Assembly (NCBI RefSeq): GCF_044324875.1
Contig: NZ_CP172186.1
Length of the DNA stretch: 64,000 nucleotides
Direction: 5' to 3' (one strand)
DNA from: Escherichia coli
Lineage (GTDB): Bacteria; Pseudomonadota; Gammaproteobacteria; Enterobacterales; Enterobacteriaceae
The position numbers are program-made. Below are positions 3,001 through 6,000 of the stretch, piece after piece (the first letter of the stretch is position 1; each line of letters opens with the position of its first letter).

Positions 3001-6000
3001 TGATAACTGTACTTATGTCACCAGGAAGGAATCCAGAGTGATAATTCGCGAACAGTAATGAAATACATGTTATCATTCTTCTGTTGGTGACTTTGCCGAC
3101 TCAGATATATACTATCTGTATGTCGTGCATTATATATTAACGATACGCAGAGGTGTGTATATGGGCAGTGTTACAAAGAAACCGTCACCTGTTGTTATTA
3201 TTAAGAAAAAAAGACGAATTCTTTCTCATCAGGATGATGCCGTACAGGCAGTTCCTGATGATATAAAACCAGCGCCAGTAATGGAATTTAAAACCGACTC
3301 ATTACCTCCTGAAATACCAGCCACAGTGGCCGGTTCCCCGGAACAACAGAAAAAAACAGGACGTAAGAAGAAGAAAAAAAAGAAGAACAATAGATGGAAT
3401 CATGAGTTTATCCGACACAGTCTGGACTGTGTTAAAAAAACATTCCCTCAGTTACGGGCTGAAGAGGGGGGATATCATGCATTTAAAATAGGCATCTCAA
3501 AGGATGTCATGGCTTTTATTTCGTCCAGTCCTGAGTGTGGACTAACTGTAAAAGAATGGAATTGTGCTGTAAGGATGATTACTGGCGGTTACAAATATCT
3601 GCAGCGTATATCAGTCGCAGGTACTCCGCGTTATGGTCTGGATGGCAAAGTTCATGGAACTGTAACGGAGGAAGAAGCGCTGTATGCGCAGGCAAAACTT
3701 GAAAAACACACGCAGCGTTATAACGCCAGGATGAAAGAGACAGAAGATGCTCGTTGCAACCAACCATCGAAAACTGTTACACCGGACAGCAATTTGAAGG
3801 ACGCCTGCATTCATAACGGGGCATAATTATGTGAAATGCTGTCCCGCTATGGAATCAGAATTGAGTAACGACACGAGGTTTTGATGATTACTGTTATTAT
3901 TTCTGAGGTGGATGGCTGGCGTGAATGGAAACACCGCGCCCGAACAAAGGATGCACAGACAGCCATCATCCGGGCTATGAATAAACATTTTCCACGATCT
4001 TACAATTTTATCCCTGATGATATTGATAATGCACCTGTATTATTTGCAGCTGTAACACGTACACCGAACGTGAAAATAACCGGTCATATCTGGAAACCTA
4101 TGTGGAACAGGGGAATTTGCTGGAACGTCAAAGGTCCGCCAGTAATCATCACGCTCATCCAGGGGGCCGCTTGGAATTCGGAAAATAAACCACGTTAAGA
4201 CTATTTGGGGTTCTAAGCCGAAAACCTAGAAAATTCCGTAACCAAAGCCAGTAATTGACAGATTTGCATGACGTTGAATAGGTGACGGGTTATGTGACGA
4301 AATCTGATGCAGAAATCGTTGTTTCAGTGACAGTCACTCAATCGGTCGTTTATGTGACAACCCATGCCGTTACTGGTCGCGGAAAAATCCAGGTTTCGGG
4401 GTTTGAGGCTCAGTGGAACAATAACCGCCGTTAAGCGGTCATTTTAAATAGCCAAAAATCAACCAGCCAATTTACATCGTGAATCTGCGTTCTTGGCTAT
4501 CTGTTTTGGGGGGGGCCAAGTTGGCTTTACTCATCCTGGCCGTTTGCGGAACAAACGACGTTGTTGATCTCAACAGATTGATTTACCTGTTATTGACCAT
4601 TCAATTGAACCGCTTAACCGCCTTTTGAGTTCCACTACTCCCCAAACCCCAAATAGCTGTCTAGCGCGAAAAATCACTGCCCGTAACGTATCATATGGCT
4701 GGTACGAATAAATTCTCACTTACTGCACCATAAACGTACACGTCAAAACCTTCCAAACATGCTTCAAAAATCAACAAATTCGCTGTATCGGAAATTTTGG
4801 CGTTTCCGGCGTACAACCCCGATTAGATATAAATGAATTAACGTGTGTGGTTTATTGGTCTCTGCCTTCTCCAGCAATGACGCAAGACTTTGACATACCA
4901 TCAAAAAAATGATCGGCGAGCTCCAGAATTCGTGGATTATGAGTTGTAATAATAACGGTAGGGCAATGCTGCCGGATATAGGTAATGATCTTTATCGCGA
5001 GTTCTTCGCCAATAGAGGCCGTGGGTTCATCAAGTACGATAATCTTTTTCTTACGGGCTAGGGCGCGGGCTATGCATAATCGCTGGATCTCTCCACCACT
5101 CAAACCACTACCCAGAGGATTAATATCCCGGTCTAGGAAAGCAAGGAAATGTTCTCCGCAGTCCTCTTTAATTAACCCCAATGAATTCAGGATGCAAAAC
5201 AGTTCATCATCGGGAAGAATGTCATCGGTTCCATACAGAATATTATCACGAATAGTTCCCTGCACCAGAACGGCTTTTTGAGGCACAACAGCAACGTCCT
5301 CCAGGATAGACGCACTCAACTCTGTGTTCTTCGGTTCAAGCCCCAACATCCGGGCAAACTGCCGTGTTTCATTAGCCCGGTAGCATGAACCATTATCCGT
5401 CAGCCACTCTACTGGAGACGCCGGAAGCTCGTTGCCGAAGCGGCGTTCCACCGCTCCCAGCATGACGTCCTGTACTGTTTCACTGTTGAAGCCGCCCGTA
5501 GTGACCGCCCAGTGCAGTGCCTCACGGTCACAGCAGTCCAGCGCGAACGTGACTCGCAGTTTTTCTCCGTTATCACAGCGGAACTCGAACCCGTCAGAGC
5601 ACCATCGTTGATTGCTTTCTTTCACGGCCACTTTGCCAGTATGTGCCCGCTTCGATGGCGGTACAGCGGTTTTTCGCTCAAGCAACAGCGCATTCTGGCG
5701 CATGATCCGGTAAACACGTTTGGCATTGATCGCAGGCATACCATCAAGTTCGTCCTGTCTGCGAAGCAGCGCCCATACCCGACGATAACCATACGTGGGC
5801 AGCTCTCCGATAACATGGTGTATACGGAGAAGTACATCCATATTATCGGAGTGACGGCTGCGGCGACCATCTTTCCAGTCATCGGTTCGTCTGAGAATGA
5901 CGTGCAACTGCGCACGCGACACCCGGAGACAACGGCTGACTAAGCTTACTCCCCATTCCCGGGCAATAAGGGCGCGTGCGCTATCCACTTTTTTGCACGC

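Follow-up and report, generated by a model that had tools for sequence, protein, structure and literature searches.

Inverted-repeat miniature elements derived from Tn3 (TIMEs), which measure 50–500 bp, carry no transposase gene and end in ~38-bp repeats related to the ends of Tn3-family transposons, are overlooked by annotation pipelines. A survey of 2026 arrived at no more than a few named enterobacterial miniature transposable elements with inverted repeats (MITEs) (PMC13367494); the TIMEs it lists are IS101, IMU, MITESen1 and TIME244/MITEEc2, with sequences in its Table S2 (Gomi and Yano, 2026; PMC13367494). Across Enterobacteriaceae the figures given are 2.3% for MITESen1 and 0.9% for TIME244 (PMC13367494). 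Here we analyse a 64,000-nucleotide stretch (the window) of Escherichia coli contig NZ_CP172186.1 (assembly GCF_044324875.1), which belongs to an IncF plasmid of the ColV or avian pathogenic E. coli (APEC) type. Positions 4398–4650 of the window are very probably one copy of a 253-bp TIME descended from Tn3-family transposons of ~3.9 kb. The class is well known; the family itself has not been named before.

IS101 is a 209-bp TIME of pSC101 (Ishizaki and Ohtsubo, 1985, as cited in PMC13367494 and PMC4133298). As described in those two papers it resembles the 253-bp element in lacking a transposase and in having Tn3-subgroup-type repeats that start GGGGT, and it contains an internal resolution site (res) and is mobilised and resolved in trans by Tn1000, a scheme that we also propose for the 253-bp element. 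The two nevertheless differ in length and have unrelated interiors (the local score of 20–22 is confined to the repeat tip), and their repeats are ~66% identical by hand count. A further difference is that the parent of the 253-bp element has co-directional tnpR and tnpA genes with the presumed res beside its left terminal inverted repeat (IRL), and a resolvase only distantly related to those of gamma-delta and Tn3 (E ~1e-6). TIME244/MITEEc2 is an Enterobacteriaceae plasmid TIME of similar size and comparable prevalence, with an interior that is, on bioinformatic grounds, the putative res of its parent lineage (PMC13367494); it differs in its Tn21-subgroup repeats and Tn21/Tn1721-like res, has no sequence similarity to the 253-bp element, and builds resistance-gene composites, of which none was seen here. 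MITESen1 (256 bp) and IMU (288 bp) are likewise TIMEs of enterobacteria; their repeats are of the Tn3 type and 38 bp long, and their 5-bp duplications are frequently missing at rearranged sites, but the two are unrelated in sequence to the 253-bp element, and res similarity has not been reported for either. The Pseudomonas elements TIME1–4 and TIME-RES (Szuplewska et al., 2014; PMC4133298) are of the same class and have the same proposed role in making mosaics, and their folding energies of −70 to −115 kcal/mol (PMC4133298) bracket the −87 kcal/mol of the 253-bp element. Their hosts and sequences are different, and for the 253-bp element a parent has been identified and a mosaic breakpoint mapped. 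Identity with IS101, MITESen1, IMU or TIME244 was ruled out by comparison with the Table S2 sequences (PMC13367494), where the best local scores of 16–22 correspond to 8–11 matched bases and nothing is similar beyond the repeat tips. A full-text literature search for the repeat strings of the element, or for MITE together with ColV and Tn3, found no paper.

The 253-bp unit, its parent and its spread

An earlier note on this DNA, made from the sequence alone, described a miniature Tn3-family element with 41-bp inverted repeats at this position, and the repeats lie where it placed them. The left arm GGGGTTTGAGGCTCAGTGGAACAATAACCGCCGTTAAGCGG (4398–4438) matches the reverse complement of its partner (4610–4650), GGGGTTTGGGGAGTAGTGGAACTCAAAAGGCGGTTAAGCGG, at 31 of 41 positions across a spacing of 171 bp; both arms start GGGGTTTG, and an inverted-repeat search stretches them to 64 nt at 70% complementarity. 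A generic, independently defined 38-nt pattern for Tn3-type ends (GGGG...TAAG) finds seven sites in the window against 0.02 expected, both arms among them. A 22-nt pattern derived from the two arms themselves, which both therefore match by construction, has three matches (0.01 expected), including the repeat at 37306. Similarity of other plasmids to the window breaks precisely at 4397/4398 and 4650/4651, the GGGG and CCCC tips of the element. The note saw no open reading frame (ORF) between the repeats. The ORFs that overlap the element are all of 50 aa or less and none is conserved, the longest one inside it crossing the G-run at 4508–4515, the length of which differs among copies, and no transposase ORF of the DDE_Tnp_Tn3 type was found within 4398–4650. 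It was also right that no 5-bp target duplication is visible, the five bases outside the tips being GTTTC on the left and AAATA on the right.

Partial database matches to the unit led to ~3.9-kb transposons, in Xenorhabdus nematophila, Salmonella Minnesota, Salmonella Poona, Enterobacter, Serratia symbiotica and E. coli pSTEC299_1, that consist of IRL, ~110 bp, tnpR (207 aa), tnpA (~995 aa) and the right terminal inverted repeat (IRR). Their genes encode a serine resolvase (Resolvase and HTH_7 domains) and a Tn3-family transposase (DDE_Tnp_Tn3; NF033527, 984 bits), and the best relative of the resolvase among solved structures is the Sin-like Bin3 (E = 3e-10). The intact transposon of Salmonella Poona, on plasmid pATCCBAA1673_02 (L018, 3599–7469), is 3871 bp long with a 6-bp duplication, TTCAAA. 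The first ~136–143 bp of the element align to IRL and to the interval that reaches to ~10 bp before the tnpR start, and element positions 1–126 are 100% identical to the left end of the pSTEC299_1 transposon. The note had asked for the cognate transposase; a tnpR–tnpA transposon family cognate to the element is identified here, and the assignment of the element to a non-autonomous Tn3-family lineage is borne out by an IRL identical to that of a transposon with an NF033527 transposase. In the res-tnpR-tnpA gene order, as in the Tn21 subgroup, res is kept in the interval upstream of tnpR. The homology to this interval implies that the interior of the element corresponds to the region holding res and is not filler, so that 'IR-only', the label of the note, falls short by ~100 bp of res-like sequence. 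The element very probably retains both 38-bp ends, the whole IRL–tnpR interval and ~70 bp of right-hand sequence of its own, both genes having been lost.

A separate observation concerns the parent-type transposon on the Salmonella Minnesota plasmid (L013 in our set of loci), in which a ~1.9-kb group II intron (ltrA; 4067–5998 and 9845–11783) interrupts both end repeats, each time after nucleotide 11 of the terminal repeat and in mirror orientation, which suggests that this intron homes into the parent-type terminal repeat. In our window, positions 37112–37180 are, by eye, a near-match on the minus strand to the 3′ end of the same intron, preceded by GGGGGATGAGG, which looks like a further repeat tip.

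The database search for the whole unit that the note had called for shows a dispersed family. A sensitive BLAST search of plasmid records found the element in 295, and 165 of 5426 complete E. coli genomes (3.0%) carry it, at 167 plasmid and seven chromosomal places. An exact 23-mer scan of GTDB representative genomes gave only two matches, in Pantoea stewartii and Erwinia typographi. Full-length copies of 76–97% identity occur in differing contexts in Enterobacter, Klebsiella (on a 4.4-kb ColE1-type plasmid), Serratia and Erwinia, on other E. coli plasmids and on one E. coli chromosome, giving at least 11 distinct contexts across Escherichia and these four genera. Perfect 5-bp duplications flank the copies at three of 11 independent sites (ACGTT in L002, GTTTT in L003 and TAGTT in L025), one of them on an E. 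coli chromosome; chance would produce one at ~1/1024 per site. Such duplications are the signature of the Tn3 family, direct repeats of 5 bp, sometimes 6 bp, flanking the insertions. Among the ~80 matches listed in the plasmid and E. coli searches, none carried an annotation of the element at the match, the only features recorded there being two hypothetical proteins and genes that happen to overlap it. On pO104_H21 (L026, 2001–2428) and at L010, the miniature element abuts the 3′ fragment of a Tn3-family tnpA pseudogene, with another inverted repeat ~245 bp downstream, and there it appears to be nested in a decayed relative of its own parent.

The res-like interior and the mosaic breakpoint

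The interior is rich in GCCAA/TTGGC, with five copies in 102 bp against 0.16 expected, a ~30-fold enrichment (Table 1). A direct pair of these motifs, at element positions 52 and 67, lies within the most conserved stretch and next to a variable spacer, after which the transposons have a 30-bp dyad, TAGCCAA-N16-TTGGCTA, at positions 115–144. Sin-type res sites are built from a direct-repeat subsite, a spacer for an architectural protein and a dyad crossover subsite. The motif pair at 4449 and 4464, the variable spacer and the dyad are reminiscent of this arrangement in the two-subsite res of Sin/resH and beta/six, a resemblance of layout only. The interior of the element is a probable res site for the serine resolvase of the family. 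The right part contains a perfect match to the consensus of integration host factor (IHF), AATCAATCTGTTG, that is kept in 11 of 11 copies (0.012 expected per 253 bp), and may well bind IHF. For the right interior (positions 127–215) no match to the parent transposons rose above a shuffled null, except a weak subterminal one between its last ~35 bp and a transposon right end. The G-run in the res-like region is a G8 homopolymer in the window, G7 in copies of 97% identity, and GCGGTAG or ACGATAG in other clades; G8 eliminates one TAGCCAA motif, and does likewise in the pSTEC299_1 transposon.

Comparison of the copies reveals that they are mosaics. Their left halves form clades, each of which matches a separate transposon lineage: the window type is 100% identical to the pSTEC299_1 transposon, the L004 type 97% identical to those of Xenorhabdus and Poona, and the L003 type 91% identical to that of Salmonella Minnesota. 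The right halves are absent from the transposons and are 82–99% identical among all copies, the divergent L009 (68–75%) being left out. Thus the window copy and L004 agree at 76% in the left half and 92% in the right, and L004 and L024 at ~80% in the left half, 96% in the right interior and 100% in IRR, L024 combining a window-type left half with an L004-type right half. A maximum-chi-square test on L024, with the window copy and L004 as parents, detected a single breakpoint at positions 134–154 (p = 0.0005), and comparisons with the transposons tighten this to positions 127–138, the centre and right arm of the dyad. Since the right half is common to all copies, independent deletions cannot be the source of the family. 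An exchange at res would account for both the shared right half and the position of the breakpoint, and also for hybrid flanks that lack duplications, and we consider it reasonably probable that the left halves have been swapped by site-specific exchange at this site.

[quoted passage not shown] Copies and transposons do have more than 100 bp of similar sequence in common, L003 hints at a second breakpoint near the inner end of IRL (p = 0.03), and homologous recombination has been invoked for MITESen1 structures (Gomi and Yano; PMC13367494). Such events require an identical tract on either side, however, so that breakpoints would be expected to scatter inside positions 1–136, whereas the exchange extends to the last bases of shared homology in two transposon-containing triplets and in L024, and coincides with a conserved dyad of the size of a resolvase site. 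Homologous recombination should not keep crossing over in the final bases of homology, which favours site-specific exchange, and we regard the purely homologous route as possible but unlikely. The right arm of the dyad, on the other hand, fits an inert interior better, being degenerate in the miniature element (ATCCTGGCCG for ATTTTGGCTA, matching the transposon arm at 6 of 10 positions). Together with a centre base that differs between lineages, this counts against a functional res, as either feature could impair the action of a resolvase. Several further facts weigh against a mobile element with a working partner: the window copy and eight of the 11 sites have no target duplication, there are no helper genes within 64 kb, and no uninterrupted copy closely related to the parent lineage was found in the 5426 E. 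coli genomes at the sensitivity of megablast. The same search did find parent fragments in 272 of these genomes; a single place covers at least 80% of the parent query, and it is split by ISEc12/IS100. That the element still moves in E. coli is therefore in doubt.

The missing duplication would also suit an immobile scar formed on the spot by a full transposon that lost its genes through deletion, and the related transposon of pSTEC299_1 does lie ~0.7 kb from DNA resembling the right flank. We considered pSTEC299_1 as an ancestor in situ, with its transposon ~735 bp from that DNA, yet its junctions are unlike those of the window. A scar is moreover hard to reconcile with a 253-bp unit that has an identical internal junction in at least 11 unrelated contexts and several genera, and with 5-bp duplications at three of them, and it is highly improbable. 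Nor do the repeats belong to a larger transposon whose body lies outside the region read, a concern raised in the earlier note. Co-option for a host or plasmid function, whether to let a plasmid resolvase resolve multimers or to serve as a promoter, a terminator or a structured RNA, could be suspected from the strong predicted RNA fold (z = −5.0) and from the 100% identity kept in at least ~70 ColV-type plasmids. Long inverted repeats give such a fold anyway, and a 9-kb block that ColV plasmids have from a recent common ancestor accounts for their identity. A search of Rfam was null (best score 15.9 bits, threshold 50), sites resembling promoters or terminators are no more frequent than by chance, and the sole serine recombinases that the window encodes share ~30% identity with the cognate TnpR; a role of this kind is improbable. 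The missing duplication at our locus may be taken, we infer, to reflect a secondary rearrangement and not immobility of the whole family.

The junction in ColV-type plasmids and other Tn3-type ends

Both pAPEC-O2-ColV and dozens of its relatives carry the 253-bp unit at 100% identity, and the immediate context of the window copy is common to ~70 plasmids. A 1-kb query around it falls into four independent homology blocks: the finO-downstream module (4000–4206), which ends with a solo Tn21-type repeat (4162–4199) followed by ACTATTT; a colicin-E5-like fragment as in plasmid ColE9-J (4207–4397); the miniature element alone (4398–4650); and, from 4651, DNA adjoining an ABC-exporter gene. In other plasmids the full-length exporter gene stands, without the element, beside genes for a lasso peptide of the microcin J25 type. 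As homology breaks exactly at its GGGG and CCCC tips, the element joins two unrelated segments.

Table 1. Features of the element, its flanks and the resolvase unit (window coordinates)
Feature	Position	Strand	Remark
Left terminal inverted repeat (IRL), 38 bp, GGGG...TAAG	4398..4435	+	Arm similarity runs on to 4438; 100% identical to IRL of the pSTEC299_1 transposon
Res-like region	4436..4541	+	In the parent, sits between IRL and the tnpR start
GCCAA/TTGGC motifs	4449–4455 (+), 4464–4470 (+), 4493–4499 (-), 4513–4519 (+), ~4521–4527 (-)		
30-bp dyad, proposed res crossover subsite	4512..4541	.	The mosaic breakpoint falls here
MITE-specific right interior	4542..4612	+	Common to all miniature copies
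Match to IHF consensus WATCAANNNNTTR (AATCAATCTGTTG on the minus strand)	4571..4583	-	Predicted from sequence
Right terminal inverted repeat (IRR), 38 bp	4613..4650	-	82–100% identity among copies
Left flank (context, outside the element): colicin-E5-like fragment	4207..4397	+	99.5% to NC_011977; homology stops at the IRL tip
Right flank (context, outside the element)	4651..5988	-	A shorter ORF matching the ABC-exporter gene, with the DNA downstream of it; homology begins exactly at 4651
Serine resolvase gene of the 852-bp unit	52889–53479	-	Resolvase+HTH_7

We propose the following history, in which mobilisation in trans, the function of res and the route by which duplications were lost are all inferred from comparison of sequences. 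The TnpA of a parent transposon would bind both repeats in trans and drive replicative transposition, producing the 5-bp target duplications, and the cointegrates would be resolved at the internal res by the parent TnpR, or by RecA. The same res would allow recombination with resident transposons or with other copies, so that left halves are swapped and unrelated flanks are joined. The window copy, which lies between the colicin-E5-like fragment and the exporter flank without a duplication, would on this scheme owe its position to a secondary event of this kind, in which two copies recombined or intramolecular replicative transposition deleted adjacent DNA; the rearrangement would have removed one original flank, and the copy would since have passed by vertical descent through ColV-type plasmids. 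The 64-kb window was found to hold no homologue of the cognate TnpA, and with neither tnpA nor tnpR of the cognate type nearby the copy is most likely immobile, a fossil fixed in the ColV lineage.

The surroundings of the junction hold further remnants. With the solo repeat on one side and the miniature element on the other, the 191-bp colicin-E5-like fragment (99.5% identity to ColE9-J) is left isolated, so that colicin or microcin remnants flank the element on both sides. The solo Tn21-type repeat, GGGGGCCGCTTGGAATTCGGAAAATAAACCACGTTAAG, and the ACTATTT after it (4162–4206) close the finO-downstream module; the same 43–46 bp are present at 100% identity in many plasmids, where homology stops at this point too. 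A third repeat of the element at 4207 was considered on account of a 12-bp inverted match, CTATTTGGGGTT (4201–4212) with AACCCCAAATAG (4645–4656), and of a start with GGGGTTCTAAGCC, and was ruled out: ACTATTT is part of the solo repeat, and GGGGTTC... is native to colicin plasmids (ColE9-J, L016, pSTEC299_1). On pSTEC405_1, an IncK plasmid unrelated to pSTEC299, a stretch at L017 (3262–3455) looks by eye like an IS101 copy with one end truncated, ~60 bp from the same junction of solo repeat and finO-downstream module. If so, this junction has gathered miniature Tn3-type elements more than once.

Other Tn3-type ends occur in the window. The note had claimed two distinct lineages of non-autonomous elements, and the one at 37306 (37306–37561; 256 bp) is indeed distinct, sharing only ~20 nt at the tip, although the window holds more than two. 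The repeats of the 37306 element resemble those of IS101, and its interior is unrelated to IS101, MITESen1, IMU and TIME244. It too represents a dispersed family (194 plasmid records, with copies of 81–97% in Morganella and Providencia), lacks a target duplication in the window (GGTGT / TTGTA) and has a resolvase-like fragment immediately to its right (37647–37790, minus strand). An 852-bp unit at 52843–53694 has Tn21-type 38-bp inverted repeats that enclose solely a gene for a 196-aa serine resolvase; it looks like the TIME-RES of Szuplewska et al. (2014), is without a target duplication (TCCTT / GCTAA), and is present over at least 80% of its length in 139 plasmid records. Its right repeat (53657–53694) is close in sequence to the solo repeat at 4162, 49.5 kb away and in inverted orientation.

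Implications for the family and for virulence plasmids

The finding alters no concept. It does add a 253-bp family that, at 3.0% of complete E. coli genomes, is as common there as the named TIMEs, with a parent transposon identified and unusually clear sequence evidence of half-exchange with that parent at a fixed point. The element is thus a natural system well suited to asking if the res sites borne by TIMEs are functional. It marks a module junction in the virulence plasmids of the ColV/APEC group, where a name for it would improve the annotation of breakpoints. A bolder extension, which we hold as tentative and rather unlikely, is that the internal res is an active, Sin-like site of two subsites with its crossover dyad next to tnpR, and that the Tn3-type ends of the window act as portable recombination sites. 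If this were true, the element and the ends at 4162, 37306/37561 and 52843/53694 would have served to join colicin, microcin and F-backbone modules into the ColV-type virulence plasmids, and TIMEs would be more than passive debris, shaping the architecture of the plasmids that carry them.

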